From Acidobacteriota bacterium (lineage in GTDB: Bacteria; Acidobacteriota; Terriglobia; Terriglobales; SCQP01): a stretch of DNA of 62,714 bases. The stretch covers positions 1-62,714 of the forward strand of contig JAKAZV010000004.1 of assembly GCA_021826505.1 (NCBI GenBank), written 5' to 3'. Below the pieces are notes generated by a model. That model saw nothing but the letters and a program-made list of their open reading frames with translations, made no database searches and had not been told where the DNA came from. Both the position numbers and the translations under genes were made by a program. Positions 30,012 to 56,866 of this stretch are shown piece by piece (the first letter of the stretch is position 1; the number at the start of each line of letters is the position of its first letter).

Positions 30012-30054
30012 ACATCCTTTTTTGAGTCATACGAGCCATCGCAAGGAAAAAACG

Positions 30055-40840: not shown

Positions 40841-41428
40841 ATGAGTTCGATCAACCGAGCCGCGGGCGAGATTCATTGCAAGCTGGTTTATTACGGTCCC
40901 GGTCTGGGCGGGAAGACCAGCAACCTGCAGTATCTCTACAGCCAACTGCCGCCGGAACGGCGCAGCCAGATGATTTCCCTGGCCACGGAGGGCGATCGCA
41001 CCCTGTTTTTCGATTTTCTGCCCCTGGAACTGGGCCAGGTGCGCGGCTTTCGCACCCGCCTGCATTTGTACACCGTGCCCGGCCAGGTGTTTTATAAATC
41101 CAGCCGGCTGATGATCCTGCGCAATACCGACGGCATCTGCTTTGTCGCCGACAGCCAGCCCGAGCGCCAGGAGGCCAATCTGGAGGCGCTGGCCGATCTC
41201 GAATCCAACCTGAGCGAATTGGGGCAAAAGCTGGCCGATCTGCCCTACGTGCTGCAGTTGAATAAACGCGATCTACCCACGGCCTTGCCTGTGGAAGAGC
41301 TGACGGCGAATTTGCGCCGCGGCCAGGAACCGGTGATCTCCGCCTGCGCCGCTAACGGCGAAGGGGTGGCGGAGACGCTGCAGGAGTTGGCCCGGAGGGT
41401 GCTGGCGCGGCTGGCCGCAACAGGGTAA
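40841..41428 (+). CDS. mglA: MglA-family small GTPase
   Basis: KLVYYGPGLGGKTSNL, DRTLFFD, TVPGQVFY, NKRD. Confidence 0.92.
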   Translation: MSSINRAAGEIHCKLVYYGPGLGGKTSNLQYLYSQLPPERRSQMISLATEGDRTLFFDFLPLELGQVRGFRTRLHLYTVPGQVFYKSSRLMILRNTDGICFVADSQPERQEANLEALADLESNLSELGQKLADLPYVLQLNKRDLPTALPVEELTANLRRGQEPVISACAANGEGVAETLQELARRVLARLAATG

Positions 41429-41499: not shown

Positions 41500-42867
41500 A
41501 TGTTTGAGCAATTTCCGACCCTGATTGAAAACCTGCTGCTGGGCCGCAGCATCGAGCGCCGGCTGCGCTTTGCGCGCCGGGTGCCGCGCTGGCTGATCGA
41601 AAAAATCCAAATTGCCGAGTTCCAGGAAACGCTGGCCCGGGTGAATCGCCATTCCAGCTTTTACCGCGAGCGCTTTCAGGCGGCGGGCCTGAACCCGGCG
41701 CGGCTGCAGAAACCTGCCGACTTAGGCGATTTTTACACCACCGCCGACGACCTGCGCGCCCAGCCGACGGAGGCCTTTGTCTGCGCACCGCCCCAGATGG
41801 GATTTGAAACCACCGGCACCACGGCCCGCAACAAGCGCCTGTATTTTTCCAATGAAGAGGTGCATGACATTGGCTTTGAGGGGGCCACGGGGCTGTGGAA
41901 CCTGGGCCTGAGACCGGACGACCGCGTGGTGGACGCTTTCGATTACGCCTTCTGGAACGCCGGGGTTACGCTGCTGCATTCGCTCAACGCCATCGGCTGT
42001 TTTCACGTTATCGCCAGCAAGCTGCCGCCGGAAGATTTTTACGAACGCATCCGCGATTACCAATTCAACGTGCTCATCGTGGATACCGCCTGGCTGGTGG
42101 CCTTTACCGAAGTGGCCGAACGGCGCGGAGTCTGGCCGGTGAAGTTCATCCTTTCCGGCAGCGAAAATCTCAGCCCGGCGACTCGCGCCTGGGCGCAGCG
42201 CGTCTGGAACGCGCCCGTCTATCAGGCCTACGGGCAGACCGAATCGCTCGGCGCCACCGGCATCGAATGCCCGGCGCAAAAAGGCTACCACCTGAACGAA
42301 TTCAACTTTATTTTCGAGCTGCGCGACCCCAATCCGGAAGGCTACGGCGAGCTGGTTTATACCACGCTGGTGCGCAAGGTGATGCCGCTGGTGCGCTACC
42401 GCAGCAACGACATTACCCGATTTGTGGATGAGCCCTGCGGCTGCCCGCTCTCGTGCATGCGCCGCATCGACAAGATCGCCGGCCGCGCCGATGAGATCGT
42501 CTCGTGCGGCATGGGCATGATCAGCCCCTGGATTTTCGAAACCTGGCTGGGCGAGGTGGCCGGCCTGGCCGATGACTGGCAAATCGCGGTCACCAGCCAG
42601 GGGCCGCGCGACCGCATCGAGCTGCGGCTGGAACTCAGCGAAAATACGCCACGGCCGCCCCGCGAGATTGAAGCCGCATTGACGGAAAAGCTGGAGCGGC
42701 ACTTTCCTTATTACTTTAAAAATTGGAAGATGGGCATGTACGAGATCGGTTTCCGCTTTTTGCCGCGCGGCGAATTGCGGCCCGGAGGGCCCCGGCGCAA
42801 ACTACGCCGCGTGACGGACGAGCGCGTGCCGGAAGCGGCACGTTCGGCTGTGGCCGGCAGGCCGTAA
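41500..42867 (+). CDS. Phenylacetate-CoA ligase (PaaK)-like adenylate-forming enzyme, paralog 1
   Basis: ETTGTT..NK, YGQTE, GELVYTTL..MPLVRYRSND, GRADE. Confidence 0.82.
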   Translation: MFEQFPTLIENLLLGRSIERRLRFARRVPRWLIEKIQIAEFQETLARVNRHSSFYRERFQAAGLNPARLQKPADLGDFYTTADDLRAQPTEAFVCAPPQMGFETTGTTARNKRLYFSNEEVHDIGFEGATGLWNLGLRPDDRVVDAFDYAFWNAGVTLLHSLNAIGCFHVIASKLPPEDFYERIRDYQFNVLIVDTAWLVAFTEVAERRGVWPVKFILSGSENLSPATRAWAQRVWNAPVYQAYGQTESLGATGIECPAQKGYHLNEFNFIFELRDPNPEGYGELVYTTLVRKVMPLVRYRSNDITRFVDEPCGCPLSCMRRIDKIAGRADEIVSCGMGMISPWIFETWLGEVAGLADDWQIAVTSQGPRDRIELRLELSENTPRPPREIEAALTEKLERHFPYYFKNWKMGMYEIGFRFLPRGELRPGGPRRKLRRVTDERVPEAARSAVAGRP

Positions 42868-43052
42868 TCCGGCGAGGGGGCTCGCAATATACCGCAAAAG
42901 CCGCGATTTTACCTGCGCCGCGCAAGCATTACCCAGGGATGGAACCGATTTGAGCGCTTGCACTTCCGCTTGCTTCATGAGAACTCTCTAATGGTCTTCT
43001 AACCGGCAGTTAATGCCATTTCAGCAATAATTTTATTTTCAGGAGAGGATCC

Positions 43053-44342
43053 ATGCCAACCACGCAGTCTGCACGGACCGATACGCCCGGGAAACTGGGC
43101 ATTTTAATGGCCGGAATGGGCGCCATTGCCTCCACCCTGGTGGCGGGCGTGGAAGCCGTGCGCATGGGCACCGGGCGGCCGCTGGGCTCGCTGACCCAAC
43201 TGGCCCTGGCGCCGGGCGCCACGACGCGCAATCCGCAAAAGCTCTATGAATATCTGAACCTGAACCGCATTCAGGATCTGGTCTTTGGCGGCTGGGACAT
43301 TACTCCCGGCACCGTGTTTGACTCCGCCACCCGGGCTGAAGTGCTGGATCCGGCGCTGCTGGAGCGCTTGCGCCCCGGCCTGGAAGCGGTCGAGCCGATG
43401 CCCGGCATTCACGATCCCCGCTATCTGCGCCGCGCCGAAGGCAAGCGGCTCAAGCCCGAGAGCAATAAATACGCCCAGGCCGAGGCGCTGCGCGCCGACA
43501 TTCGCGCCTTTAAAAAACAGCACCGGCTGGAGCAAGTGGTGGTGATGTGGTGCGGCTCGACGGAAGTTTTTCTCACTCCCGGCCCCGCCCATCAGGGAAT
43601 CGGCATTTTCGAGACCGCGATGAAGGAAAACGAGGCCAGCATCGCGCCCAGCATGATTTATGCCTATGCGGCGCTGCGGGAAAACTGCGGCTTCGTCAAC
43701 GCCACGCCCACGCTCAGCGTGGATCTGCCGGTGATGCTGGAGCTGGCGGCCGAGCATCATGCCCCGGTGAGCGGCAAAGATCTGAAAACCGGGCAGACCT
43801 GGCTAAAGACGGTGCTGGCGCCGGGCATCAAGCAGCGGATGCTGGGTTTGAACGGCTGGTTTTCGATGAACATTCTGGGCAATCAGGATGGCGCGGTGCT
43901 AGACGATCCGGCCGCGTTCCGCAGCAAGGAAGAATCCAAGCTTTCGGCCCTGAACCATATTCTGCAGCCGGAGCTCTATCCCGAGCTTTACGGCCAGATG
44001 TCGCATCAGGTCAAGATCAATTACTATCCTCCCCGCGGCGACAACAAGGAAAGCTGGGACACCATAGACATACTGGGCTGGCTCGGATATCCGATGCAGA
44101 TCAAATTGAATTTCCTCTGCCGCGACAGCATTCTGGCCGCGCCGCTGCTGCTGGATCTGGCGCTGCTGACCGCCGCGGCGCAACGCGCCGGCTGGTCGGG
44201 CGTGCAGGAATGGCTGGCCTTTTTCTTCAAGAGCCCGCAAGTGCGGCAAGGGCAGCCCGAGCATGATCTTTCCGCGCAATATCAAAAGCTGACAGCGGCC
44301 TGGCGCGCGCTGGCTGAAGCGGCGGTGCCGGTGAGCCGATAA
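43053..44342 (+). CDS. ino1: myo-inositol-1-phosphate synthase
   Basis: FGGWDI, STE, GKDLKTGQT, NILGNQDG, FRSKEESK, CRDSILAAP, FFKSP. Confidence 0.93.
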   Translation: MPTTQSARTDTPGKLGILMAGMGAIASTLVAGVEAVRMGTGRPLGSLTQLALAPGATTRNPQKLYEYLNLNRIQDLVFGGWDITPGTVFDSATRAEVLDPALLERLRPGLEAVEPMPGIHDPRYLRRAEGKRLKPESNKYAQAEALRADIRAFKKQHRLEQVVVMWCGSTEVFLTPGPAHQGIGIFETAMKENEASIAPSMIYAYAALRENCGFVNATPTLSVDLPVMLELAAEHHAPVSGKDLKTGQTWLKTVLAPGIKQRMLGLNGWFSMNILGNQDGAVLDDPAAFRSKEESKLSALNHILQPELYPELYGQMSHQVKINYYPPRGDNKESWDTIDILGWLGYPMQIKLNFLCRDSILAAPLLLDLALLTAAAQRAGWSGVQEWLAFFFKSPQVRQGQPEHDLSAQYQKLTAAWRALAEAAVPVSR

Positions 44343-44412
44343 TATTCCCGGCCAATCCTAACCGGCCCTGAGGCGCCTGGCGCCGCGGGCAAACCTTGCC
44401 TGGACTGAAAAC

Positions 44413-45183
44413 ATGAATACTCCCCCCTTGCAGGACCGCATTGCCATCATTACCGGCGCGGCCCGCGGCATTGGCCGCGGCATCGCGCTGGAACTGGCCC
44501 GGCAAGGCGCCATTCCGGTCATTAATTACGTCACCAGCGGCGAGGCCGCGCGCGAGCTGGCGGCCGAGATTGCCGCCGCCGGCGGCCGGGCCGAACTCTG
44601 CGCCGCCGACGCGGCCGCGCCGGAGGGCATTCAGACGCTGATGAGCTTCGTCAAGGAAAAGTTTGGCGGGCTCGATATATTCATCGCCAACGCGATTGAC
44701 GTCGCCTCCTCGGGACCGGTGCTGCGCGCCCGCGGCGACGCCTGGGAAGCCACGGTGAATAAAAATGTCACCGCCCTGCTGCTGGCGGCGCAAAAAGCCG
44801 CGCCCCTGATGCAGGGCCGGCCGGGCAAAATTCTGGCCATTTCCAGCCTGGGTTCCTCACTCACCATCCCCAATTACGGCGCGGTGGGCGTGACCAAGGC
44901 GGCAACCGAAGCGCTGGTGCGCTATCTGGCGGTGGAGTTAGGGCCCAAGGGCATCAACGTCAACGCGCTATCGGCCGGACCCATTGATACCGACGCGCTC
45001 AAGCTCTATCCCAATTACACCCAGATGAAACAATCGGCGGAAACCACCACCCCGGCGCGGCGCCTGGGCGTACCCGCCGATCTGGCGCCCGTGGCGGCGT
45101 TTCTCTGTTCCGATGCCGCGCAATGGATCCACGGGCAAACCCTGGTTGCCGATGGCGGCCTGTCTTTGTTAACCGTGCGCTGA
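44413..45183 (+). CDS. SDR oxidoreductase, FabL-like enoyl-ACP reductase
   Basis: TGAARGIG, ISSLGS, Y-x6-K (YGAVGVTK), GPIDTDAL, characteristic of FabL-type ER. Confidence 0.75.
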   Translation: MNTPPLQDRIAIITGAARGIGRGIALELARQGAIPVINYVTSGEAARELAAEIAAAGGRAELCAADAAAPEGIQTLMSFVKEKFGGLDIFIANAIDVASSGPVLRARGDAWEATVNKNVTALLLAAQKAAPLMQGRPGKILAISSLGSSLTIPNYGAVGVTKAATEALVRYLAVELGPKGINVNALSAGPIDTDALKLYPNYTQMKQSAETTTPARRLGVPADLAPVAAFLCSDAAQWIHGQTLVADGGLSLLTVR

Positions 45184-45247
45184 AGCAAGCCGGCCCTTCA
45201 CCCGGGCGGCCGGAAGCGGATCAATTTTATTTTTGAGGAGACCGTTC

Positions 45248-45730
45248 ATGAGTCAAGCCAACTCGAATATCGAAGAAGTTTCGCATATACGCCAGATCGC
45301 CGATTTGGTGCTGGCGACCCGGCACGATGAAGTGCTGCTGAAGGTGCGTGAGGCCATCGCTGAAGTGCTCGGCTGCGATCTGGACAAGGTCGGGCCCAAT
45401 GCGAGCCTGATGAAAGACCTCAACGCCGAGTCGCTGGATTTTCTGGATCTGCTCTTTCGCCTGGAAGCCGCTTTTGGCGTGAAGATCCCGCGCGGCGGCA
45501 TTCAGCGCGCCACCCAGGGCTCGCTCACCGAGGCCGAGTTCCAGCAGAACGGCATCCTCACCGAAGCCGCGCTGGAGCGGCTGCGCATTCTGATGCCGGA
45601 AGTGGATCCGGCGCGCCTTCAGCCCGGCCTGCCGGCGCGGGAAATACCCGCTCTGTTCACCACCGAAACCTTTGTCCGCCTGGTGGCCTGGCGGCTGGGG
45701 GAAACCGCGGCCGAAGCCGCCAAAAGCTGA
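45248..45730 (+). CDS. Acyl carrier protein with large insertion
   Basis: DLNAESLDFLDLLFRLE phosphopantetheine Ser motif; ~55-aa insert before final helix; GAGGAG RBS. Confidence 0.85.
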   Translation: MSQANSNIEEVSHIRQIADLVLATRHDEVLLKVREAIAEVLGCDLDKVGPNASLMKDLNAESLDFLDLLFRLEAAFGVKIPRGGIQRATQGSLTEAEFQQNGILTEAALERLRILMPEVDPARLQPGLPAREIPALFTTETFVRLVAWRLGETAAEAAKS

Positions 45731-45775
45731 GCCGCAAACCGCGTAACCGCACATCCACAGGGCAGCCTGATCCTT

Positions 45776-46303
45776 ATGCGTTATCTGATGCTCGACCGCA
45801 TCCTGGAGATCGAAGCCGGCCGCTTCGCCGTGGGCCTCAAGTCGCCGGCACTGAGCGAAGACTACTTCGCCGATCACTTTCCCGGCTTTCCCGTGGTGCC
45901 GGGGGTATTGCTGGTCGAGGCCATGGCGCAACTTTCCGGCCGGCTGATCTCCTACACGCTGTGGGTGGAGTCGCGGCGGCAGGCACTGCCAGTGCTGCTG
46001 ACGGTGCAAAATGCGCGGTTCAAGCATTTTGTGCGCCCGGGCGATCGCATTGAGCTGCGCAGCGAATTGCTCGGAATCTCGGATGGCGCCGCCCGCTGCA
46101 AGGCCAGCGCCCGGGTGGGCGAGCGGGTCGCGGCCACGGCCGAAATGATGCTCGGCTTTGACAGCGAAGGCGACAGCAACGTGATTCCCGCCGCCGCGCG
46201 CGCCACGCTCGACCGCTGGGCAGCGGAGGTGAACCGCATTCTGCTCACCGATGCCAAACTTACGCCGGCGCCGCCGCCGGGCGAAACCTATCCCGCCCTA
46301 TGA
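45776..46303 (+). CDS. 3-hydroxyacyl-ACP dehydratase (FabZ-like)
   Basis: DHFPGFPVVPGVLLVEAMAQ, F...VRPGD. Confidence 0.88.
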   Translation: MRYLMLDRILEIEAGRFAVGLKSPALSEDYFADHFPGFPVVPGVLLVEAMAQLSGRLISYTLWVESRRQALPVLLTVQNARFKHFVRPGDRIELRSELLGISDGAARCKASARVGERVAATAEMMLGFDSEGDSNVIPAAARATLDRWAAEVNRILLTDAKLTPAPPPGETYPAL

Positions 46304-47607
46304 ACGCCAATGGATATCACGGCCGCCGGGTAGTGGTGACGGGCATGGGCGCCGTCACGCCGATTGGCCACAGCGTGGCCGAGACGTGGCAGGGGCTGCG
46401 CGCCGGCGTGTGCGGTGTTGGCCCCATCACCGTTTTTGACGCACGCAGCTTTGAAACCCGCATTGCCGCCGAAGTCAAGAATTTCGATTTTGCCCGGTTG
46501 CGCGCCAGCCGCGAAATTGCCGAAACCCTGGACCGCAAAAACAGTTTCGGCTATGCCGCCGCGCTCGAAGCCATGCGGGACGCCGGCCTGCTCAAGCCCG
46601 ATGACGAGCCCGCGCTGGAGCCGAGCGAAGCCGGCCGGCTGGGGATATCGCTGGGCACCGAAGGCCGCCGCGACAGCCTGCTGCCGGAATTGGCGCACCG
46701 CAAACTGCTGCCCGCGGACCCGGCCGCACGGCAAGCCGTGCTGGCCCAGGTGCCGCGTTCGGAATATCTGCGCTATTCGCCTTACGGGCTGGAGTTTGCC
46801 CTGGCGCATACCTTCGATGCGCGCGGCCCCATCACGACCATTTCCACCGCCTGCACCTCCAGTTCGCAGGCGCTGGGGTATGCGCTGGAAAAAATCCGCA
46901 CCGGCGAAGCCGATCTCATGCTGGCCGGCGGCGCGGAAAGCCTGATGGAACCCACGCAGGTGGCGGGCTTCATTTTGCTGGGCGCGCTGTCGAAGCGCAA
47001 TGACGATCCCCAGCACGCCTGCCGGCCCTTTGATGCCGAGCGCGACGGCTTCATTCTCGCCGAAGGCGCCGCCATGCTGGTGCTGGAAGACGCCTGGCAT
47101 GCCTATCGCCGGGGCGCCCGGGTTTATGCCGAAATTGCCGGCTTCGGCACCTCGATCAATGCCTACCGCATCACCGATTCGCCGCCCGATGGCCAGGGAC
47201 CGCTGCTGGCCATGCAGGCGGCGCTGGCCGACGCGCGGCTGCGGCCCGAACAGGTTGACTACATCAATGCCCATGGCACGTCCACCATGCAGAATGACGC
47301 CAGCGAGACGCGCGCCATTCAGCGCTGTTTTGGCGAACGCTGGCGCTCGATTCCGGTCAGCTCAACCAAGTCCATGACCGGACACATGGTGAATGCCGCC
47401 GGCGCGATCGAGGCCATTATTTCGGTGCAGGCGATTCGCGAAGGCTATATTCCCCCCACTCTGAATTACGAGCATCCCGACCCGGCCTGCGATCTCGATT
47501 GCGTGCCGAATCAGGGCCGCGAGGCGCGGGTGCGCACGGTGCTTTCCAATTCATTTGGCTTCGGCGGCTCCAATGGAAGCGTGGTGATTCGTGAATATGT
47601 CGCCTGA
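46300..47607 (+). CDS. Beta-ketoacyl-ACP synthase (FabF-like), catalytic triad intact
   Basis: STAC, NAHGTST, KSMTGH, NSFGFGG. Confidence 0.92.
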   Translation: MNANGYHGRRVVVTGMGAVTPIGHSVAETWQGLRAGVCGVGPITVFDARSFETRIAAEVKNFDFARLRASREIAETLDRKNSFGYAAALEAMRDAGLLKPDDEPALEPSEAGRLGISLGTEGRRDSLLPELAHRKLLPADPAARQAVLAQVPRSEYLRYSPYGLEFALAHTFDARGPITTISTACTSSSQALGYALEKIRTGEADLMLAGGAESLMEPTQVAGFILLGALSKRNDDPQHACRPFDAERDGFILAEGAAMLVLEDAWHAYRRGARVYAEIAGFGTSINAYRITDSPPDGQGPLLAMQAALADARLRPEQVDYINAHGTSTMQNDASETRAIQRCFGERWRSIPVSSTKSMTGHMVNAAGAIEAIISVQAIREGYIPPTLNYEHPDPACDLDCVPNQGREARVRTVLSNSFGFGGSNGSVVIREYVA

Positions 47608-48904
47608 CGGACAACGCCGGGTGGTGATCACCGGCATGGGCGTGCTTTCACCCCTGGGCCACGACCCGCGGGCGCTCTGGCAATCGCTCGCCGCCGGCCA
47701 GAGCGGCATCGGGCCGGTTGAACATCTGAGTCTGGCGCCCTTTCGCAGCCGGGTGGGCGGCGCGGTGCGTAATTTCAACCCGCGCCAGTTCATCGCCGAC
47801 CCCAAGAGCTTCAAGCTCATGACCCGCTCGGTGCGCCTGGGCGTGGCCGCGGCGGAATCGGCGATCGCGGCGAGCGGCTGGAAAGCCGGCGCGGATGACA
47901 ATTTTCGTCTCGCCAGCCTGGTCGGCTCGCCCGGCCATGCCGGCGAACGCGACGAACTGCTGCCCGGGCTGGAGCAAGCCTGGCGCGAGGGCGAACTCAA
48001 TCTGGAGGCCTTTGGAGAGCGGGGCATCTCGGTCACCAATCCACTCTGGTTATTGAAGAGCCTGGCCAATATCGTGCTCTATTTCGTCAGCCTCAAGCTG
48101 GGCGCCCAAGGGTACAACGCCAACTATTGCATGTCGGGCGCCGGCGGCATCATGGCGATCGGCGAAGGCGCGCGCGCGATTGCTTCCAACCGCGCCGATC
48201 TGGCGGTCGCCGGCGGCTATGAGTCGCTGCTGGATGAGGAACGGCTGGAAAGCTTCGAGCGCTCCGGCCTGCTGGTGCTGGAAAGCGGCGAGGATGCCAC
48301 CGCCAGCCGGCCTTTTGACCGCGACCGGCGCGGCTTCGTGCCCGGCGAGGGAGGCGCGTTTGTGGTGCTGGAGGAACTGGGGCATGCCCGGCAGCGCGGC
48401 GCCCATATCTGGGCCGAAGTTCTGGGGTTTGGACTGGCCAATCCGGGGCGCGCCCAGGCGCCATTCGCCGGCCATGAATCCACCGCCGCTTTCTCTTCCG
48501 CCATGCAATCGGCACTGGGCGAAGCCCGGCTGGATGCCTGGGAATTGAATGCCATCTTTGCCCACGGTCTGGGCACGCCGCACGCCGACCGCTGCGAAGC
48601 CGAGGCGATCAAGCAATGCCTGACCGCGCGCGCCGCCTACGTGCCGGTGACCGCGGTGAAATCGCTGAGCGGCAACCTGGCGGCGGGTTCCGGGCCGCTG
48701 GAAGTGATCGCCGCAGTGGGCAGCCTGCAAGCCGACGGTCCGGGCGTGCCCGCGATCGCCAATTGCCGGCATCCCGACCCTGATCTGGGCCTGGATCTGG
48801 TGCGCGGCCGAGCCCGTGCCGGCCAGTGCCAGAAAGTTTTGATTAACTCCGCCAGCCTGTCGGGCGCCACCGCCAGCCTGGTTCTGGGAGGGATAGAAGC
48901 ATGA
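47591..48904 (+). CDS. Degenerate ketosynthase (chain-length-factor-like)
   Basis: KS fold motifs, but Cys position reads CMSGAGG (Gly) and second His reads SGNL; start may be 47597. Confidence 0.8.
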   Translation: MNMSPDGQRRVVITGMGVLSPLGHDPRALWQSLAAGQSGIGPVEHLSLAPFRSRVGGAVRNFNPRQFIADPKSFKLMTRSVRLGVAAAESAIAASGWKAGADDNFRLASLVGSPGHAGERDELLPGLEQAWREGELNLEAFGERGISVTNPLWLLKSLANIVLYFVSLKLGAQGYNANYCMSGAGGIMAIGEGARAIASNRADLAVAGGYESLLDEERLESFERSGLLVLESGEDATASRPFDRDRRGFVPGEGGAFVVLEELGHARQRGAHIWAEVLGFGLANPGRAQAPFAGHESTAAFSSAMQSALGEARLDAWELNAIFAHGLGTPHADRCEAEAIKQCLTARAAYVPVTAVKSLSGNLAAGSGPLEVIAAVGSLQADGPGVPAIANCRHPDPDLGLDLVRGRARAGQCQKVLINSASLSGATASLVLGGIEA

Positions 48905-49659
48905 CCCCGGCTCCTTCTGCGCAATTGCACGACCGTGCGGCTCTGGTAACCGGCGCCGGCCGCGGGATTGGCCGCGCTATTGCTCTGCGCCTGGCCGCCG
49001 CGGGCGCCCGGGTGGCAATCAACTACCGGGCCAGCCGACAGGAAGCAGAAGCTTTAGCCGGCGAAATCACCGCCGCCGGCGGCCGGGCCGAAATTTTTCC
49101 CGCCGATGTCAGCCAGCCCGCCGAGGCCCAGGCGCTGATCGAAGCGGTCCACAAAACCATGGGCCGGCTCGACATTCTGGTCAATAACGCCGGCGTCATC
49201 CGCGACGGCCTGCTCATCAGCCTTGAGGATGAAGACTGGCGCACGGTGATCGCCACCAATCTCGACAGCGTTTTTTACTGCTGCCGCGCCGCGGCGCGGA
49301 TCATGATCCGGCAGCGTTTCGGCCGCATTATCAACATGTCGTCGGTGGCCGGCACCCGTCCCAACCGCGGACAGGTGAACTACGCCGCATCCAAAGGGGG
49401 CATCAACGCCCTGACTCGCGCATTGGCGGCCGAACTGGCCAGCCGCAATATCACGGTGAATGCCGTGGCGCCGGGCGTGATCGAAACCGAAATGACCCAG
49501 GCGATCCGAGATGCGGCCCACGATCAGATTCTCGCCAGCATCGGGCTCAAGCGGCTGGGCCGGGTTGAGGATATTGCCGGCGTAGTAGCCTTTTTAGCTT
49601 CCGACGACGCGGCTTATATCACCGGCGAAATATTGCACGTGGATGGCGGCCTGCGCTGA
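48901..49659 (+). CDS. 3-oxoacyl-ACP reductase (FabG-like)
   Basis: TGAGRGIG, NNAG, GQVNYAASK, VAPG. Confidence 0.9.
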   Translation: MTPAPSAQLHDRAALVTGAGRGIGRAIALRLAAAGARVAINYRASRQEAEALAGEITAAGGRAEIFPADVSQPAEAQALIEAVHKTMGRLDILVNNAGVIRDGLLISLEDEDWRTVIATNLDSVFYCCRAAARIMIRQRFGRIINMSSVAGTRPNRGQVNYAASKGGINALTRALAAELASRNITVNAVAPGVIETEMTQAIRDAAHDQILASIGLKRLGRVEDIAGVVAFLASDDAAYITGEILHVDGGLR

Positions 49660-49722
49660 CCTTATTCCACCGGGGCGGCCGGAGAGCCGCGCCGCGGCGC
49701 TGATCTCTTCGCCTTAATCGTC

Positions 49723-50634
49723 ATGAAAACTTTCCGCCCAGTTGTCATTACCGGCCAGGGCTGGCTATTGCCGCCCGGGGTGGAACTGCGCCAGTTTCAC
49801 CCGCAGGCAACGGCCCCGGCGGCGGAATTTGCGCCGGCCCGTTTGCGGGACTTTGCCGCCGGTGATTATGTGCGCGACCCGAAAGTGCTGCGCGCGATGA
49901 ATCGCCTGTTTCAGGTCGCGGCCGCGGCCGCCGTGCTGGCCATGCGCGATGCCGGCTTTCAGCTTGCCCGCGATCTGACCGGTGCGGGGCATGATCCCGC
50001 CCGCTGCGGAACCGCCGTGGCCATGAGCGAAATTTCTCCGCTCACCCAGAATCTGCTGGACGCGGTCATCGCATGCAGCCCCGGCGGACGGTTTGACCTG
50101 GCGGCCTTTGGCGAAATTGCCCGGCATCAGCTTCACCCTTTTCGCCGTCTGACGATGCTGCCCAATATGGCGGCTGCGCACATTTCTCTGTTATTCGGCT
50201 TGCAAGGCCCCAGCTATACCCTCGATTCCGGCATCACGGCCGGCATGCAGGCGATCCGCGAAGCCTATTGGGCGATTGCCGGCGACAAAGCGGATCTGAT
50301 GGTTTGTGAAGCCGCCGACAGTCCTGAAAACGCCTTGCGCCGCGCCGCAACCCAGGAAGCGGCCGGGGCGCTGGTGCTGGAGGCGGAAGCGTCCGCCCAG
50401 GCGCGGCAGGCCCGCATTCTGGCGCGGGTGCGGGCGCAGCCGGAATACCCCTGTACGGCTCCGGTTTCGGGTTCCTGCGCGGCGCCGGCCGCGGGCAGCT
50501 TGCTTGCAGTGCTGGCCAGCCTGTGCGAGATCGGTCTGGATCCACCGCAATCGCTGCCCGGCCTGGAATTATTTCCCCCCGCATCAACAGCCGAGACCGT
50601 ATCCAGCCTGACTCCGCGGGAGGGCAGAGCATGA
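49723..50634 (+). CDS. Truncated ketosynthase N-terminal-domain protein (CLF-like)
   Basis: VVITG, LPNMAAAHIS..LQGP, EAAGALVLE; no catalytic Cys or His-bearing C-terminal domain. Confidence 0.72.
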   Translation: MKTFRPVVITGQGWLLPPGVELRQFHPQATAPAAEFAPARLRDFAAGDYVRDPKVLRAMNRLFQVAAAAAVLAMRDAGFQLARDLTGAGHDPARCGTAVAMSEISPLTQNLLDAVIACSPGGRFDLAAFGEIARHQLHPFRRLTMLPNMAAAHISLLFGLQGPSYTLDSGITAGMQAIREAYWAIAGDKADLMVCEAADSPENALRRAATQEAAGALVLEAEASAQARQARILARVRAQPEYPCTAPVSGSCAAPAAGSLLAVLASLCEIGLDPPQSLPGLELFPPASTAETVSSLTPREGRA

Positions 50635-51893
50635 ATCGGGTCGTCATTACCGGCATGGGCGTGATCTCGCCCCTGGGTCTCGATCTCGAAACCACCCGCA
50701 CCGCGCTGTTTGCCGGCGCCAGCGGCATTCGCCATATCCGCCAGTTTGACGCGCGGCAATTTCCCGTGCGCATTGCGGGAGAAGTCAATGACCCCACGCT
50801 TCCCGACGCCTCGGCGCCTGGCCTGCCCCGCATGCGGGCGCTGGCGCAGCGCGCGGTGCAAAGCGCGCTGGCCGATGCCGGACTGCCCGCAGCCGCGTGG
50901 GACGCGGCCGACGGCGTGCGGCCGGACAGGCATCCGCGCCATGCGCTGGCGTGGTCGCTGGGTAAACAGTCGCTCAATGTCGCGCAACTGGCAGACGCCA
51001 TTTCCGGGCTTTCCCACCCTCCCCAGATCCAGGCCGCGGGCTGGCCGGCTGAATTCATTCAGGAATGGGAAGATCGCGAGCCCGCTGCCTGGCTGCGCGA
51101 ACTGGGCCAGGCCACCGGCGCCGCCGGCCCGGCCTATTGCTGTTATACCGCCTGCGCCTCCGGCAACGATGCTTTGGGCATCGGCAAGCGGCTGATCGAG
51201 CGCGGCGAAGCCGATCTGGTTTTAGCCGGCGCCGCCGACAGCCAGGTGCAACCGCTCAGCCTGCTGGAATATGACCTGCTCGACGCGCTGGCGCAGGGCG
51301 AGCCGGAGCAGGCCTGCCGGCCGTTTGACCGCTGGCGCAGCGGCTTTGTGGTGGGGGAAGGCGCGGCGGTTCTGGTTCTGGAGTCGGAAGAGCATGCCCG
51401 CCGCCGCGGCGCGCGTCTGCGCGGCCGCCTCACCGGATACGGCAGCGCGCTTGATTGTTACGGCTTGACCAAATGCCATCCCGAGGGGCGCGGCGCCGCA
51501 CAGGCGATTGAGGCAGCGCTGGCCGACGCCGGCCGCTCTCCGGCGGAGATCGGCTATATCAATGCCCACGGCACCGGCACGGTGCTCAACGACCGGGCTG
51601 AATCCGCCGCCATTCACCGCGTCTGGGGCGCCCGCGCGACCCGCATTCCGGTGAGCTCGACCAAGGCCATGACCGGCCATCTGATCGCCGCCGCCTCGGC
51701 CGTGGAAGCGGTGCTGACGCTGCTGGCGCTACAGGAAAAAGTGCTGCCCCCGACCCTGAACTATTCCGTTCCCGATCCTGAATGCGAACTAGCCATCGTG
51801 CGCACCGTACAGCCGCTGGAATTTCATATCGCCATGTCCAATGGCTTCGGTTTTGGCGGCCAGAATTCCGCTCTGATCCTGGAGGCTGCGTAA
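50631..51893 (+). CDS. Second intact beta-ketoacyl-ACP synthase (FabF-like)
   Basis: YTAC, NAHGTGT, KAMTGH, NGFGFGGQN; ATGA overlap with upstream gene. Confidence 0.9.
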   Translation: MNRVVITGMGVISPLGLDLETTRTALFAGASGIRHIRQFDARQFPVRIAGEVNDPTLPDASAPGLPRMRALAQRAVQSALADAGLPAAAWDAADGVRPDRHPRHALAWSLGKQSLNVAQLADAISGLSHPPQIQAAGWPAEFIQEWEDREPAAWLRELGQATGAAGPAYCCYTACASGNDALGIGKRLIERGEADLVLAGAADSQVQPLSLLEYDLLDALAQGEPEQACRPFDRWRSGFVVGEGAAVLVLESEEHARRRGARLRGRLTGYGSALDCYGLTKCHPEGRGAAQAIEAALADAGRSPAEIGYINAHGTGTVLNDRAESAAIHRVWGARATRIPVSSTKAMTGHLIAAASAVEAVLTLLALQEKVLPPTLNYSVPDPECELAIVRTVQPLEFHIAMSNGFGFGGQNSALILEAA

Positions 51894-51899
51894 TTTCTC

Positions 51900-53249
51900 A
51901 TGGTCCTGTCTCTGGTTGAACCCGCATTTGACTTGCTCGACCGCAGTCTGCTGGGCTCGCCCCGGCGCCGGCTGCGGGTGGCCGGCATGCTGCCGACCAC
52001 CCTGGTGGACCGTTTGCAGCGCGCCAAGCTCCATCGCCTGGTGCGCTATGCCGGCAAACATTCGCCCTTTTATCGCGAGAAGTTCCGCGAGTACGGCATC
52101 AATCCCCGCCACGTATACACGCACGCGGATCTGGGCGATTTTTTTACCACGCCCGAAGATTTGAAATCGCGTCCGGTCGAGGACTTTCTCTGCGCCCGCC
52201 CCGAGGCCGGCTTTGAAACCACCGGCACCAGCCTGGGCGTGAATAAGCGAGTGTATTTTTCCAATCAGGAAATGCTCGACTACGGCCGGGACGGCGCGGC
52301 CGGACTCTACAACCTGGGATTGCGGCGCGAAGACATCGTTCTCGACGGCTTTGATTATTCCTTCTGGAACGCCCCCTTTACCGCCTATTTTTCCCTGCAG
52401 TACATGCGCTGTTTCCACGTCATCGGGGCCTTCATCGAACCCCAGGAGCTTTATGACCGGATGAAGGTGTACCGCCCCAACGTCATTCTCGGCGTGCCCA
52501 CCCATATGGTCCGGGTGACGGAAGTGGCCGAGCGGGAAGGCGTCTGGCCGGTTAAATTTCTTTTGCTGGGCGGAGAAAACCTGAGCGAACGCACGCGCGC
52601 CTACATCGAATCGGTCTGGCGCGGGGCGCGGGTGTTTCTTACCTATGGCCAAACGGAAAATTTTGGCATGACCGGAGTCGAGTGCCCGCAAAAAGGCGGC
52701 TATCATGTCAGCGGCCTGGGCCTGGTTTCGGAAATCATACAACCCGACGAGCAGGGGTACGGCGAATACGTGTACAGCACCCTCGACCGCACGGTCATGC
52801 CCTTCATCCGGTATCGGTCGGCCGACATTACCCGCTGGACCCGCAACGGCGGCTGCACGTGCGGCCTGCGGGTGATGCCGCGGCTCGACAAGATCATCGG
52901 CCGCTGTGATGAGCTGATCAACTGCTCCATGGGCAATATCAGCCCCTACTGGTTTGAGGAAATCCTGCGCGATATTCCCGCCGTGGGCAATGAATGGCAG
53001 GTCAAGGTGCGCCGCGGCGACCGCGACGACATCATTGAATTCCATCTTGAGCTCAATGAATCCGGGGCGGAAGGCGCCGTGCGCGAACAGATCTTCCGCA
53101 ACATCGAAACCCGCTTTCCCGACTGCTGGCGCTATTACACCAAGGGATTTTTCGAGTTTGATTTCCACTTTCATGCCCGGCATACGCTGAGCAATGGCCG
53201 TAAACTGCGGCGGCTGATTGACGCGCGCAAGGACGCCTGGAGCCAATAA
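51900..53249 (+). CDS. PaaK-like adenylate-forming enzyme, paralog 2
   Basis: ETTGTS..NK, YGQTE, MPFIRYRSAD, GRCDE; colinear with paralog 1. Confidence 0.82.
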   Translation: MVLSLVEPAFDLLDRSLLGSPRRRLRVAGMLPTTLVDRLQRAKLHRLVRYAGKHSPFYREKFREYGINPRHVYTHADLGDFFTTPEDLKSRPVEDFLCARPEAGFETTGTSLGVNKRVYFSNQEMLDYGRDGAAGLYNLGLRREDIVLDGFDYSFWNAPFTAYFSLQYMRCFHVIGAFIEPQELYDRMKVYRPNVILGVPTHMVRVTEVAEREGVWPVKFLLLGGENLSERTRAYIESVWRGARVFLTYGQTENFGMTGVECPQKGGYHVSGLGLVSEIIQPDEQGYGEYVYSTLDRTVMPFIRYRSADITRWTRNGGCTCGLRVMPRLDKIIGRCDELINCSMGNISPYWFEEILRDIPAVGNEWQVKVRRGDRDDIIEFHLELNESGAEGAVREQIFRNIETRFPDCWRYYTKGFFEFDFHFHARHTLSNGRKLRRLIDARKDAWSQ

Positions 53250-53315
53250 AGCGCAAGCACCCGCGGAGTGCGCGCGGCCGTTCCGCCTGCATTGAAGACA
53301 CGAGGAGATTTCGGT

Positions 53316-54617
53316 ATGGCATCAAAACTGGCGCTGCTCGGCGGCCCGCGGGAAGTTCCGCAGGCCGCGGAAAAAACTCATTGGCCGGTCATTACCGCGG
53401 AAGACAAAGCGGCGGTGCAAGCCGCACTCGACCGCGGCGTGCTGTGGGCCATGACCACCCCCAGCGGCCTGCATTGTCCCGAGCAGGACGCGCTCGAGCG
53501 CGAATTCGCGGAATTTCTCGGCGTACGCCATGTACTGGCCGTCAATGCCGGCACCGCCGCGCTGCATATGGCGCTGGCGGCGGCCGGAGTTGAGGCCGGC
53601 GATGAGGTCATCACCTCGGCTTTTTCCTTTCTGGCCACGCCCGCGGCCATCCTGCACGCCGGCGCCATCCCGGTATTTGCCGATATCGATCCCCGCACCT
53701 TTAATCTCACTCCCGACGCCATCGCGGAAAAAATCACGCCCCGCACCCGGGCCATTCTCGCCGTGGATATCCATGGCCTGTGCGCAGACTGGAACCCCAT
53801 ACTGGCCCTGGCCCGCAAGCACCATTTAATCGTGCTGGAAGATGCCTGCCAGGCTCCCGGCGCCAGCTACCATGGCCGCCCCGCCGGCAGCTTCGGGCTG
53901 GCCTCCGGCTTCAGCGTCAACGGCACCAAGAATTTTGCCGTAGGCGAGGGCGGTTTTCTGGCCACCAACGATGATGGGATTTACGCCCGCGCCGGATGGA
54001 TCAAGCAGGTTGGGGAAAATTTCCCTTCCGGCCATCCCATCATGAGCCAGCAGAAATACCTGGCCTGGAATTACCGCGTGCAGGAAATGCCCTGCGCTTT
54101 TGCGCGTTCGCAGCTGCGCCGCCTGGCGGGCTATAACGCCACGGCCCGCCGCAACGCCGCCATTCTTGAGACCTATCTGCGGGAGATTCCCGGCCTGCGC
54201 GCGCCCTACGTGCCCGAAGGCTTTGTCTCGGTTTATCACAAATACCGCATCACGCTGGCGCCGGAAGAACTGGAGACCCGCCTGCGCGGCAGCGCGCTGC
54301 GCGACGCCTTCATGGCCGCGCTGGCGGCCGAGGGCGTGGATGTGGATCTGTGGGGCACGGCGCCGCTGGCCGCGCATCCGATGATCGCCGGCCATCACGG
54401 CTTCGGCCACGGTTTTCCCTGGTCACTGCACGGCGCGCCGGAGGCTTACGCCTATCGCGCCGAAGATTATCCGGTCACGCTCGCAATGTTTGCCAATAGT
54501 TTTTGCCTGACCAACGACGAATTTCCCATCTATGCCCAGCCCGAAGCGCTGATGCATGCCTATGGCCGCGCCCTGGCCAAAGTTGCGGCTCATGCCGCGG
54601 AATTGAAAGCCCGCTGA
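53316..54617 (+). CDS. DegT/DnrJ/EryC1/StrS family PLP aminotransferase
   Basis: GTAALH, EDACQA, FSVNGTKN..GEGG (PLP Lys), WNYR; GAGGAG RBS. Confidence 0.9.
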   Translation: MASKLALLGGPREVPQAAEKTHWPVITAEDKAAVQAALDRGVLWAMTTPSGLHCPEQDALEREFAEFLGVRHVLAVNAGTAALHMALAAAGVEAGDEVITSAFSFLATPAAILHAGAIPVFADIDPRTFNLTPDAIAEKITPRTRAILAVDIHGLCADWNPILALARKHHLIVLEDACQAPGASYHGRPAGSFGLASGFSVNGTKNFAVGEGGFLATNDDGIYARAGWIKQVGENFPSGHPIMSQQKYLAWNYRVQEMPCAFARSQLRRLAGYNATARRNAAILETYLREIPGLRAPYVPEGFVSVYHKYRITLAPEELETRLRGSALRDAFMAALAAEGVDVDLWGTAPLAAHPMIAGHHGFGHGFPWSLHGAPEAYAYRAEDYPVTLAMFANSFCLTNDEFPIYAQPEALMHAYGRALAKVAAHAAELKAR

Positions 54618-54922
54618 AGCGTCCCAACCGGTTACGGTCGGTTCCGCCGGCTATTCCGCGGGAATCCACACCTGGCTTGCGGGAATTTCATCCGGCAATA
54701 ACAACGCCACATGCCGATTGCGCCATCCAGGACGCGCGGGGACGGCGTGATCCTAATTTACATACAATAGGCCGCACTGCTCCCTTCCCATTAAAGCCGA
54801 GTTAATGCCGGCATATTATCCCGAATGATGCCGCGCGGGATGGCGCGTTTTTCGGCTGCCGGGCGAGTTTTTACTCTTTATACTACGCCTCGTATTGATG
54901 GCCGTCACATGCGAGGAAACTC

Positions 54923-56866
54923 ATGAGTTCAACTCCCCCTGGAGTGCGGTATTTACGCTGGAGTTCGGCCCTGTTCGCGGTTCTGCTGCTGACCGGGCTG
55001 CTGCCGCTCCTGTTTCCCTATGGCACACAGGCGCAATGGATTCTATTGGTGCACATCGTTATCGGGCTGGCGGTGTTGCTGCCGGTGACGAAGTATTTGT
55101 GGCGGCACCTGCAAGCCGCAAAACAGCATGGGGCGACCCGCTGGTGGGCGCCCGGCTATTGGGGATGGTGGGGCTGGCTGGGCGCGAGCGTGACGGGCGT
55201 GGTGCTGACGGCCTGGGGCTTGTGGGGATCGTTCACTCCCTACACGCTGCACTGGGTGCATATCGGGTTTGGCCTGGGACTGGGATTGCTGGGGCTGTGG
55301 CATGTCATTTACCGGTTAGGCCAAAGCCGTTTTGCCGAGGCGAAATACCGGGCGCTGGCGCAGGCGGGAGTGCTGGTCTGCGTGGTGGTGCTGGGTGGCA
55401 TCGCGGGCATTTGGCTGGCCCGCAGAGGCCACAAACCCGCCAAGACCAGTTTTGAGCCTTCCAACGCGCAAACGGTTACCGGGCGCGCGATTCCGGTGGC
55501 TTTATTGAAGAGCGCGCGCTCCTGCGGACAATGCCACCAGCAGATTTACCGGGAATGGCTGCCCAGCGCGCACCATTATTCCGCCACGGATCCGTTTTAT
55601 GAGGTGGTCAAAGCGAATTTCCTGCGCGCGCGCGGGCCGTCCGCGGCGCAATATTGCGCCGGATGCCATGAGCCAGTGACACTGCTCTCTGGCGAACGCC
55701 TGCACGCGAAAACCACCGGACGGGACGGCGCCGTGGGCAGCAGTTGCGCGTTTTGCCATCTCATTCGCGACATGAAGACGCGCGGCAACGCCAATTACTT
55801 CGTCCATGTGCCGGATCCATACCTATTCGAGTTCTCCCGCAATCCATTCCTGCTGCGGGTTTCGGACCTGCTCATACGGCTGCATCCCCAGCAGCACAAC
55901 TATGACTACAACGTGAAGCCGTCGGAAAGCGCACTGTTTTGCGGGACCTGCCATAAGCAGTACATCAGCAAACGGGTGAATGGCTGGGGGTTCGTGCAGC
56001 TGCAGGACCAGTACGACGACTGGAAAAACGGGCCCTGGCCGTCGCGCGGCCTGAAATGCGAGAGCTGCCATATGCATCGCGTGGCCTCGAATGATCCCGC
56101 CCGCAGCCCGCATGGCTTCATTCGCGACCATCGGATCCTGGCCGCCAACAATTACGCTCCCCTGATGCTGCATCTTCCCGGCGCGCGGCGGCAGGTCCAT
56201 CTGGTGGATCAATGGATGCGGGGCCAGACGGTGATTCCAGCGCTGGCCGGCCGCTGGCCGCGGGGACCGCTGGTGCCTTTGATTCTGCGCGCTGAGGGCA
56301 ACTGGAAACCCGGCGGCATGGCGGCGCTGCGCACCTTGCTGATTAACGCCAAAGTCGGCCATACCTTCCCGGCCGGACCGCTGGATGTGATTGAAGCCTG
56401 GCTGCAAGTATCCGTAACCGACGGGCGTGGACACCAGGTGTTTTCGGTTGGAACCCTGGGGCCGGAAAAGCAAATTGAGGGCAAAACCGTCGAATACCGG
56501 GCGCATCTTCTCGACCGCCATGGCCATTCGGTCTATACGCACAGCCTGTGGAATGTGGTCGGAGCACGGGGCAAGCGGGTGATCATGCCCGGAGGCAGTG
56601 ATACCCACGTGTTCCGGTTTCCCATCCCCGCGCAAAGCCGCGGGCCGCTGGTCTGCCGAGTGCGCTTTCTCTACCGGAAGTTTAATTCGATGACTCAGCG
56701 CCTGCTATTTCCGCCCAATTTTCATCCGCCCATACCGGTGCTGACCATTTCTTCGGCCCGGCTCGTGGTGCCGCTCCAAACGCACGCCATGGCACGGGTT
56801 TTTTCCCCTTCCCATGCCCAGGCCAGCGCCTCGGCCGGTCGCCGGGCCGTAAGCGAGCGGCGATGA
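54923..56866 (+). CDS. Membrane-anchored pentaheme cytochrome c (c554-like) with N-terminal multi-TM domain
   Basis: Five CxxCH motifs (CGQCH, CAGCH, CAFCH, CGTCH, CESCH); about five TM helices with His; GHTFP.G motif. Confidence 0.85.
   Translation: MSSTPPGVRYLRWSSALFAVLLLTGLLPLLFPYGTQAQWILLVHIVIGLAVLLPVTKYLWRHLQAAKQHGATRWWAPGYWGWWGWLGASVTGVVLTAWGLWGSFTPYTLHWVHIGFGLGLGLLGLWHVIYRLGQSRFAEAKYRALAQAGVLVCVVVLGGIAGIWLARRGHKPAKTSFEPSNAQTVTGRAIPVALLKSARSCGQCHQQIYREWLPSAHHYSATDPFYEVVKANFLRARGPSAAQYCAGCHEPVTLLSGERLHAKTTGRDGAVGSSCAFCHLIRDMKTRGNANYFVHVPDPYLFEFSRNPFLLRVSDLLIRLHPQQHNYDYNVKPSESALFCGTCHKQYISKRVNGWGFVQLQDQYDDWKNGPWPSRGLKCESCHMHRVASNDPARSPHGFIRDHRILAANNYAPLMLHLPGARRQVHLVDQWMRGQTVIPALAGRWPRGPLVPLILRAEGNWKPGGMAALRTLLINAKVGHTFPAGPLDVIEAWLQVSVTDGRGHQVFSVGTLGPEKQIEGKTVEYRAHLLDRHGHSVYTHSLWNVVGARGKRVIMPGGSDTHVFRFPIPAQSRGPLVCRVRFLYRKFNSMTQRLLFPPNFHPPIPVLTISSARLVVPLQTHAMARVFSPSHAQASASAGRRAVSERR

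Follow-up and report, generated by a model that had tools for sequence, protein, structure and literature searches.

A 62,714 nt stretch (the window, positions 1 to 62,714 of contig JAKAZV010000004.1, assembly GCA_021826505.1) from a 2.75 Mb, 89.6 % complete metagenome-assembled genome (MAG) of a Terriglobales bacterium contains twelve co-oriented genes (positions 41500–54617, plus strand) that combine a set of fatty-acid synthase (FAS)-like genes with genes for inositol synthesis, carboxylate activation and amino transfer. We propose, from gene content and linkage, that they form one biosynthetic operon, which would direct the synthesis of a dedicated acyl chain amide-linked to an inosamine, that is, an N-acyl aminocyclitol, for which we favor a role as a cell-envelope lipid; we give this reading a probability of roughly one half. 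The initial annotation of the window had suggested a specialized acyl chain on an inositol or inosamine head group. The product is still a predicted one, and the suggestion is now supported by the co-conservation of both sets of genes and by the linkage, in related loci, of genes for an IolM-type dehydrogenase, an inositol monophosphatase (IMPase) and a Gfo/Idh/MocA-family dehydrogenase.

Organization of the operon

The twelve open reading frames (ORFs) of the initial annotation are all present at their positions in the plus strand, and searches with Pfam and NCBIfam models agree with the gene assignments. The first gene, ANL1 (41500–42867), codes for a PaaK-like adenylate-forming ligase of 455 aa with an AMP-binding domain (PF00501), and is followed by the gene for a myo-inositol-1-phosphate synthase (MIPS; 43053–44342, 429 aa, PF07994 and PF01658), which is a dedicated second copy of this enzyme. 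After this, there are genes for a FabL-like enoyl-acyl carrier protein (ACP) reductase of the short-chain dehydrogenase/reductase (SDR) type (44413–45183, 256 aa, matching the NCBIfam FabL model below its cut-off), an enlarged ACP with a PP-binding domain (45233–45730; 165 aa if translation begins at the TTG, 160 aa if it begins at the ATG in position 45248) and a FabZ-like 3-hydroxyacyl-ACP dehydratase (45776–46303, 175 aa, PF07977). The ketosynthase (KS) genes come in two groups separated by fabG (48901–49659, 252 aa, TIGR01830), coding for a 3-oxoacyl-ACP reductase: upstream of it are those for the FabF-like KS1 (46300–47607; fabF model, NF005589 and alignment) and its KS-beta-type inactive partner KS2 (47591–48904; alignment), and downstream those for KS3t (49723–50634), a truncated KS-beta-type partner of 303 aa with only the N-terminal ketoacyl-synt domain, and for KS4 (50631–51893; fabF model and alignment), whose probable true start is the ATG at 50631. 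The last two genes code for a second PaaK-like adenylate-forming ligase, ANL2 (51900–53249, 449 aa), assigned from profile matches and conserved motifs, and for an aminotransferase of the DegT/DnrJ/EryC1/StrS family (53268–54617, 449 aa, PF01041), hereafter DegT.

Start and stop codons overlap at four junctions, by 4 bases in FabZ/KS1, KS2/FabG and KS3t/KS4 and by 17 bases in KS1/KS2, as the initial annotation had indicated for several genes. Its statement that FabD, phosphopantetheinyl transferase, thioesterase, radical SAM, cyclase and transporter genes are missing also stands, because none of these families was matched by Pfam or NCBIfam among the twelve products and the scanned flanking products. 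Elsewhere, the genome has a single FabD (contig C75), a single ACPS-type transferase (C41) and a single IMPase (C143). As to the thioesterase, there is none in the operon, but a metallo-beta-lactamase (MBL)-fold hydrolase encoded elsewhere in the genome may fill this role.

Conservation of the operon and its different layout in a second lineage

A genome scan with one genome per species, in which the twelve products were mapped by tblastn, identified 47 loci. Gene order was identical in all 26 loci from Terriglobales; all 21 that reach the position of MIPS contained it, as did all 20 that reach that of DegT, and ANL1, inverted in one case, appeared in 14 of the 16 whose upstream DNA was long enough. 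Twelve further loci of the window type, hereafter variant 1, came from metagenomes, and conservation in 26 genomic and 12 metagenomic loci indicates that the arrangement is beyond chance. The co-occurrence of ino1 and the aminotransferase gene with homologous KS cores, on which the initial annotation had made its reading depend, was therefore observed throughout these loci and, relinked, also in the second lineage described below. The flanks vary, with glmU and serS in several loci and genes for a polyprenyl synthase, a CYTH protein, an Arf-like GTPase and a multiheme cytochrome in the window, so the conserved unit comprises the twelve genes.

Homologs of DegT with 51–58 % identity are common in metagenomes, and we mapped the cluster proteins on 80 loci fetched with them. 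Nineteen of these (L053–L068, L076, L077 and L083), with proteins ca. 50 % identical, constitute variant 2, in which the genes are distributed in two divergent operons, one with the order FabG-KS2-KS1-FabZ-ACP-FabL-MIPS and the other consisting of a single ligase gene, DegT and a zinc alcohol dehydrogenase gene. The dehydrogenase gene directly follows DegT in 16 loci and is itself followed by an IMPase gene in L063, L065, L067 and L076, such that MIPS, phosphatase, cyclitol dehydrogenase and DegT occur all in cis in L063, L065 and L067, compared with only MIPS and DegT in the cluster of the window. A gene for an MBL-fold protein lies on the opposite strand between those for FabZ and ACP in L059, L063, L067 and L068, and the sequences of L059, L067 and L068 stop just past FabG. 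One of the variant 2 proteins (P0187) is labeled at source as from a Betaproteobacteria MAG. After the IMPase gene, L063 (9816–13462) and L067 (12222–15817) also contain genes for an S9 prolyl-oligopeptidase-family protein and a MobA-like nucleotidyltransferase.

Variant 3 was found in a genome (G573) from another Acidobacteriota family, with the MIPS gene divergent from those for DegT and a Gfo/Idh/MocA dehydrogenase, and with a ligase gene alongside; the 15.6 kb contig contains no FAS genes. The fact that the ligase gene stays with those for MIPS, DegT and a dehydrogenase on a contig lacking FAS genes suggests that the ligase is tied to the aminocyclitol block. This module is flanked by genes for a patatin-like lipase and a resistance-nodulation-division (RND) efflux system.

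The best match of the window genome to the variant 2 dehydrogenase (48 % identity) is encoded in contig C156, in the order OPT transporter, dehydrogenase, class I/II aminotransferase, MBL-fold hydrolase and two-component system. Both dehydrogenases exceed the cut-off (450 bits) of the equivalog model NF041097 for scyllo-inosose 3-dehydrogenase IolM, with 481 bits for variant 2 and 483 bits for C156. On a contig shared with the operon, the dehydrogenase gene is 12–27 kb away from it in two genomes (G023 and G009). A copy of the C156-type class I/II aminotransferase gene, with 44 % identity, is located directly upstream of DegT in locus L123. We do not claim orthology of the variant 2 and C156 class I/II aminotransferases, which are 28 % identical and are not reciprocal best hits, with better matches in contigs C133 and C81. 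In summary, MIPS, DegT, a cyclitol dehydrogenase and a PaaK-like ligase constitute a portable module. Variants 1 and 2 combine it with a private FAS, and the variant 3 contig has none.

Predicted pathway

In the pathway that we propose, the dedicated MIPS would cyclize glucose-6-phosphate to inositol phosphate, and a phosphatase would free inositol, a step attributable to the single IMPase in the window genome and, in part of the second-lineage loci, to an IMPase encoded in the cluster. The IolM-type zinc dehydrogenase, encoded in C156 here and right after DegT in the second lineage, would then oxidize the cyclitol to an inosose, which DegT would convert into an inosamine. In parallel, the acyl chain would be assembled on the enlarged private ACP by the pairs KS1-KS2 and KS4-KS3t, and FabG, FabZ and the FabL-like reductase would finish each cycle to give a largely saturated chain of set length, with malonyl transfer and phosphopantetheinylation assumed to be supplied in trans by the housekeeping FabD and AcpS. 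MBL-fold thioesterases exist, and chain release might be due to the MBL-fold hydrolase from C156. Finally, the PaaK-like ligases would adenylate the free acid and transfer the acyl group to the amine. We infer from the genes the substrates of all these enzymes, and likewise that the hydrolase acts as a thioesterase and the product as a lipid.

The acyl-chain genes

Alignment of the four ketosynthases with the housekeeping FabF of the genome showed that KS1 and KS4 keep the Cys-His-His triad, whereas KS2 has Gly at the position of the Cys and Asn at that of the second His, and KS3t, which is missing its C-terminal half, has Ile in place of the Cys. The operon thus codes for two pairs of a ketosynthase with an inactive partner, KS1-KS2 and KS4-KS3t. 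In neither partner is the Cys replaced by Gln, the mark of decarboxylative priming, so this type of priming is unlikely. KS1 scored 454 bits with the fabF model (cut-off 493.75) and 447.5 bits with NF005589 (cut-off 387); KS4 was below the cut-off with both the fabF model (365 bits) and the AmcF model (248.5 bits versus 325). Orthologs of KS2 (55–69 % identity) were found exclusively in Terriglobales MAGs, the next relatives having ca. 41 % identity.

FabG exceeded the equivalog cut-off of TIGR01830 (313.5 versus 297.75 bits), and the FabZ-like protein was under the cut-off of two FabZ models (108 versus 155 and 104 versus 113 bits). The best NCBIfam match of the FabL-like SDR was to FabL, with 259 bits versus a cut-off of 328, and its translation contains the Y-x6-K spacing of enoyl reductases; its gene adjoins that for MIPS in variants 1 and 2. 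Together, FabG, FabZ and the FabL-like reductase would provide a full reduction cycle. The initial annotation had likened the cluster to KS/chain length factor pairs that make polyene or long acyl chains with a ketoreductase and a dehydratase. Such KS/inactive-partner pairs are indeed encoded together with both activities, but, with an enoyl reductase, the chain factory resembles a FAS and is not of the polyene type.

The PP-binding domain of the ACP (38 bits, cut-off 20.8) spans only residues 37–86, and its phosphopantetheine Ser, in the motif ESLD, is invariant in 19 sequences. The protein is about twice the usual size. In an AlphaFold model (predicted local distance difference test, pLDDT, 92.3), its N-terminal helix is long and ca. 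40 residues are inserted after helix II, before the last helix; this insertion is conserved in both cluster lineages. Around 53 residues of the model superpose on ordinary ACPs. A Foldseek search against solved structures produced nothing at E ≤ 0.001 and recovered the ordinary ACP core alone; the longest alignment, of 132 columns and with a template modeling (TM) score of 0.42, was to the specialized ACP RPA2022 (3lmo).

The PaaK-like ligases and the proposed junction of both halves

ANL1 and ANL2 are 46 % identical, and the genome contains no further copy; ANL2 shares 50 % identity with the only ligase found in variant 2, and its adenylation motifs TTGT and GRKLRR are conserved in 20 sequences. 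The best solved relative of ANL1 is PaaK (4r1l, E = 7e-31), and its NCBIfam matches, to the DVU_1553 family, PaaK and FlxY, are all below cut-off. With the PaaK equivalog model TIGR02155 the two ligases reach 107.6 and 100.3 bits versus a cut-off of 646.3, which places them in the same superfamily branch and outside PaaK itself; labels for ANL1 in a protein atlas are limited to the generic "coenzyme F390 synthetase / PaaK family". The PaaK-like ligases also contain the invariant residues C319, C321 and C342 (ANL2 numbering), as well as C98 and C262, in a pattern that resembles a metal site. We infer their amide-forming role from context only.

The same conjugate could be produced with a different junction if the ligases loaded an unusual or preformed starter acid on the private ACP, and another enzyme, such as the inactive KS partner or the MBL-fold protein, passed the chain to the aminocyclitol. 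The operon lacks both a KS III/FabH-type starter enzyme and a thioesterase, the partners KS2 and KS3t contain Gly and Ile instead of Gln, and the nearest named families of the ligases (PaaK, and FlxY of flexirubin) form thioesters, all of which would fit ACP loading. Against this, the variant 3 ligase is located beside MIPS, DegT and a dehydrogenase on a contig without any ACP or KS gene and the ligase gene of variant 2 belongs to the transcription unit of DegT and the dehydrogenase gene and not to the ACP operon. We consider this possibility unlikely, although it is the alternative that survives best.

The cyclitol genes

The MIPS of the operon matched PF07994 with 262.4 bits (cut-off 25) and PF01658 with 110.7 bits (cut-off 27), its closest solved relative being 7nwr (E = 3e-133). 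The stretches SGKD..KTGQT, NILGNxDG, SKEESK and CRDSILAAP, which we take to be catalytic, are conserved in alignments to the solved structures 7nwr and 9m53. A second, housekeeping MIPS, 56 % identical to that from the operon, is encoded in contig C98 (22385–23647, locus L050). Its neighbors code for a metallophosphoesterase, a 6-phosphogluconolactonase and a DUF374 protein. MIPS was found in all the 91 Terriglobales genomes searched, suggesting that inositol synthesis is universal in this order. An unrooted tree of 58 MIPS sequences separated 27 cluster-linked copies (19 from variant 1, seven from variant 2 and one, with a long branch, from variant 3) from 31 housekeeping copies, with an SH-aLRT support of 100.

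DegT matched PF01041 with 272 bits, and the Lys that binds pyridoxal phosphate, in the motif NGTKN, is invariant in 18 sequences; this Lys distinguishes the aminotransferase branch of the family from the dehydratase branch, which has His. The best solved relative of DegT is by far Fic25 (8gyh; E = 9e-82 over its full length), with sugar and inosose aminotransferases matching at E = 1e-50 or weaker and, among them, the glutamine:scyllo-inositol transaminase 7b0d at E = 4e-48. The ligases of the operon, in turn, gave weak NCBIfam and Protein Data Bank matches to BagE/FevW and to the PaaK-like ligase 6siw, which presumably form esters. According to PMC11726168, Fic25 (8gyh entry set) aminates an amino-dihydroxy-oxoheptanoate bound to a carrier protein. 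Both sets of matches would agree with an operon in which DegT, like Fic25, aminates a keto-acyl chain on its carrier to give an amino fatty acid, with inositol or inositol phosphate esterified by a PaaK-like ligase. Gene linkage argues otherwise: a cyclitol dehydrogenase gene comes right after DegT in the 16 variant 2 loci, a Gfo/Idh/MocA dehydrogenase gene does so in variant 3, where there is no ACP, and a dehydrogenase and DegT beside MIPS and IMPase correspond to the classical inosamine route. An amino fatty acid esterified to inositol is, in our opinion, improbable, and slightly more so than ACP loading by the ligases.

Distribution of the genes and probable role of the product

We evaluated the distribution of the genes in 300 further Terriglobales genomes, excluding that of the window (G000), from family f1 (seven genera, n = 27) and its sister family f2 (n = 273). 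The PaaK-like ligase was present in 27 of 27 f1 genomes, and in f2 there were just PaaK-like matches of 25–30 % identity, in nine of 273 genomes. Likewise, the IolM-type dehydrogenase was found in 25/27 genomes of f1 and 1/273 of f2, and the MBL-fold hydrolase in 26/27 and 0/273, respectively; in 18 of the 25 genomes containing both, their genes were separated by at most ca. 4 kb. Two or more matches to MIPS occurred in 23 of the 27 f1 genomes, the remaining four, with a single match, being 54–93 % complete, and a single match was found in 60 out of 63 f2 genomes. These tallies include the unpublished genomes G009, G019, G021, G023, G027, G029 and G035, plus G087 in the MIPS count, and the adjacency count takes in the unpublished G009, G023, G027 and G035. 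Sequencing runs carrying cluster DNA were labeled mainly as mine drainage, with some from soil and sediment, and no RNA runs were listed among them.

Since the genes are universal in one family and several loci have housekeeping neighborhoods, we favor an envelope lipid over a sporadically distributed antibiotic. Instead of a structural lipid, the product could be a specialized metabolite that diffuses, such as an antibiotic or signal resembling hygromycin A, a reading to which we give only a slim chance, somewhat below those of the two alternatives above. In its favor, pairs of KS and KS-beta are commonly encountered in type II polyketide systems, genes for an RND efflux system are located beside the variant 3 module, and the sole characterized pathway of the same logic, that of hygromycin A, gives an antibiotic (PMC10949010). 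However, occurrence in 27/27 genomes of the family and in neighborhoods with glmU and serS does not favor a diffusible product, the operon lacks a regulator, a resistance gene and an exporter, and the complete reduction cycle and the enlarged ACP point to a long saturated chain. Finally, the idea that two unrelated neighbors, one supplying inositol for phospholipids and the other being a separate special fatty-acid synthase, happen to be adjacent deserves almost no credence because, even if no analysis provides a chemical link between the blocks and MIPS is in 91/91 Terriglobales genomes anyway, the genome already has a housekeeping MIPS elsewhere, the genes of both blocks are intermingled within a single operon that has overlapping codons, where MIPS-FabL-ACP occupies one end and KS4-ANL2-DegT the opposite one, and their linkage survives rearrangement in the second lineage.

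Evaluation of the N-acyl aminocyclitol reading

Several observations weigh against an N-acyl aminocyclitol made by this operon. The pathway is predicted from genes, and these come from a MAG that is incomplete. The closest characterized relatives of the ligases are coenzyme A (CoA) ligases, as seen in the match to PaaK, and the variant 3 ligase is split into two ORFs (locus L141, G573 contig C91, 11475–12661), due to a frameshift, a pseudogene or an assembly error. Genes for the dehydrogenase, the phosphatase and the hydrolase are all outside the operon in the window genome, where a Gfo/Idh/MocA query also produced only matches of 27–29 % identity; additionally, the MBL-fold proteins from C156 and variant 2 are just 32 % identical, despite being reciprocal best hits. 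IolM, the enzyme that gives its name to NF041097, presumably oxidizes an inosose during inositol catabolism and does not perform the first oxidation of inositol. No transporter or flippase gene was linked to the cluster. Furthermore, the closest solved relative of DegT works on a tethered keto acid and not on a free inosose (PMC11726168). With respect to distribution, tblastn did not find MIPS, ANL or DegT genes in 20 loci from Myxococcota/Bradymonadia and from bins named only "bacterium" or "proteobacterium", nor in one from Vicinamibacterales, which share only a KS-FabZ-FabG core (KS identity of 35–41 % in Myxococcota/Bradymonadia). Lastly, the profiles at the family level may reflect a single ancestral gain, making the genome counts non-independent.

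Two other candidates were rejected. A cyclitol-derived starter for omega-cyclic fatty acids does not fit the lack of a carboxylating step and the lack of FAS genes on the variant 3 contig, and a catabolic inositol operon does not fit the presence of a biosynthetic MIPS paralog.

A bolder form of the N-acyl aminocyclitol proposal, which we regard as quite doubtful, is a glycerol-free and phosphorus-free bilayer lipid with two amide-linked tails on a diaminocyclitol backbone (a streptamine-like 1,3-diamine), which would define an acid-tolerant family of Acidobacteria. For this, after the IolM-type enzyme had oxidized another position of the inosamine formed first, DegT or the class I/II aminotransferase from C156 would carry out another transamination; ANL1 and ANL2 would attach one chain each, and the two KS pairs would supply two chain lengths.

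If the N-acyl aminocyclitol proposal is correct, an uncultured and widespread family of Terriglobales would make an undescribed class of lipids, with a fatty acyl chain amide-linked to an amino-inositol. This would add a phosphorus-free amino lipid to the bacterial repertoire and would place aminocyclitol chemistry, known from antibiotics, at the service of a probable structural molecule. It would also provide a taxon-specific biomarker, as the mass of the aminocyclitol head group could be searched for in lipidomes from soil and mine drainage. Even without a product, the comparative data define the portable module of MIPS, DegT, cyclitol dehydrogenase and PaaK-like ligase.

Neighboring sequences

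A hairpin followed by a T run, resembling a terminator, is located 215 bases past DegT (54832–54847, plus strand); a consensus scan found 24 such sites in the region versus 15.0 ± 4.5 in shuffled sequences, and the hairpin evidence is therefore weak. Directly upstream of ANL1 there is a gene for an Arf/Ras-like small GTPase (40841–41428), and a 71 % identical gene is found beside ANL1 only in L001, L016 and L041. Directly past the operon (54923–58599) are genes for a 647 aa multiheme c-type cytochrome, with an MtrC/MtrF-like domain, and for a 578 aa FG-GAP/ASPIC protein with a Tat-like signal; both genes were absent beside the operon in the other loci, except for the near-identical metagenome fragment L126 (91 % over its start). 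The window also contains a stretch (24000–32000) with a GC content of 0.54–0.58, versus 0.61–0.67 elsewhere, with ORFs of 984 aa (27057–30011) and 1545 aa (30022–34659), the product of the latter having no sequence match among solved structures.

In the loci from Myxococcota, Bradymonadia and unclassified bins (L027–L047; for instance, L043, 3033–12000), the core consists of genes for FabZ, two KS/partner pairs and FabG; in L043, this core is preceded by a gene for a family 2 glycosyltransferase and followed by flagellar export genes.

Comparison with known systems

The initial annotation knew of no characterized cluster with this combination of genes. We found no description of it in the open-access full-text literature, either as a combination of MIPS, KS, aminotransferase and ACP or as an aminocyclitol or inosamine lipid from Acidobacteria, and no paper on the exact gene set, but the statement overlooked hygromycin A, from Streptomyces hygroscopicus. 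Palaniappan et al. reportedly described in 2006 and 2009 that an amide bond joins the aminocyclitol of this antibiotic to an acid, which discrete KS, ACP, ketoreductase and dehydratase proteins build from a starter activated by a CoA ligase. Unlike that pathway, the cluster described here includes an enoyl reductase, two KS/inactive-partner pairs, an enlarged ACP and PaaK-type ligases, its dehydrogenase is of the zinc IolM type and not of the Gfo/Idh/MocA type (variant 3 excepted), and it is universal in a family of Acidobacteria as opposed to being an antibiotic cluster present at the strain level. Among the twelve products and scanned flanks there was no family corresponding to the methyltransferase, methylenedioxy-bridge and fucofuranose genes of the hygromycin A cluster, of which Hyg6 and Hyg7 are named in PMC10949010. 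For the aminocyclitol half, PMC10949010 proposes the action of Hyg18 (MIPS), Hyg25 (phosphatase), Hyg17 (inositol dehydrogenase) and Hyg8 (aminotransferase), and the head-group logic from MIPS to aminotransferase is shared with our cluster, a likeness that concerns the described functions and not the Hyg sequences.

The aminocyclitol branches of aminoglycoside pathways also employ a DegT-family aminotransferase (7b0d, 5w70 and 2c7t match at E = 4e-48 to 1e-33) and a cyclitol dehydrogenase, and the zinc dehydrogenase presumably finds a parallel in 2-deoxy-scyllo-inosamine dehydrogenase; however, these pathways attach sugars and not acyl chains, and have no ACP or ketosynthase. The DegT-linked dehydrogenase and its C156 ortholog resemble IolM from Thermotoga maritima in that they pass the IolM equivalog cut-off, but that enzyme is catabolic and acts after the IolG step, whereas the one described here accompanies a biosynthetic MIPS, an aminotransferase and a ligase. 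The MIPS from the inositol-lipid pathway of Bacteroides (7nwr) is the closest solved relative of the one in the operon; that pathway presumably follows a phosphatidylinositol-phosphate synthase route, and there is no CDP-alcohol transferase in this operon.

With regard to the acyl half, highly reducing type II polyketide synthases, such as those for aryl polyenes and flexirubin and the AmcF-AmcG pair of cispentacin, similarly contain discrete KS with an inactive partner, ACP, ketoreductase, dehydratase and an adenylating enzyme, but lack the enoyl reductase found here, and none of them is coupled to inositol. The products of the operon were below the cut-offs of the flexirubin models (FlxY, 87 and 98.6 versus 520; FlxB, 255 versus 340) and of the cispentacin models (AmcF, at most 248.5 versus 325; AmcE, 37.6 versus 140). 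Rhizobial clusters of the AcpXL type likewise place a private ACP before their own FabZ and a FabF-type ketosynthase pair, in the service of one special chain, the very long acyl chain of lipid A, but have no aminocyclitol genes and deliver the acyl group to lipid A by means of an acyltransferase. What appears to be new in the cluster described here is that acyl-aminocyclitol chemistry has been rebuilt with a FAS-like tail factory and fixed in a whole family, which sets it apart from a mere member of the hygromycin A type.

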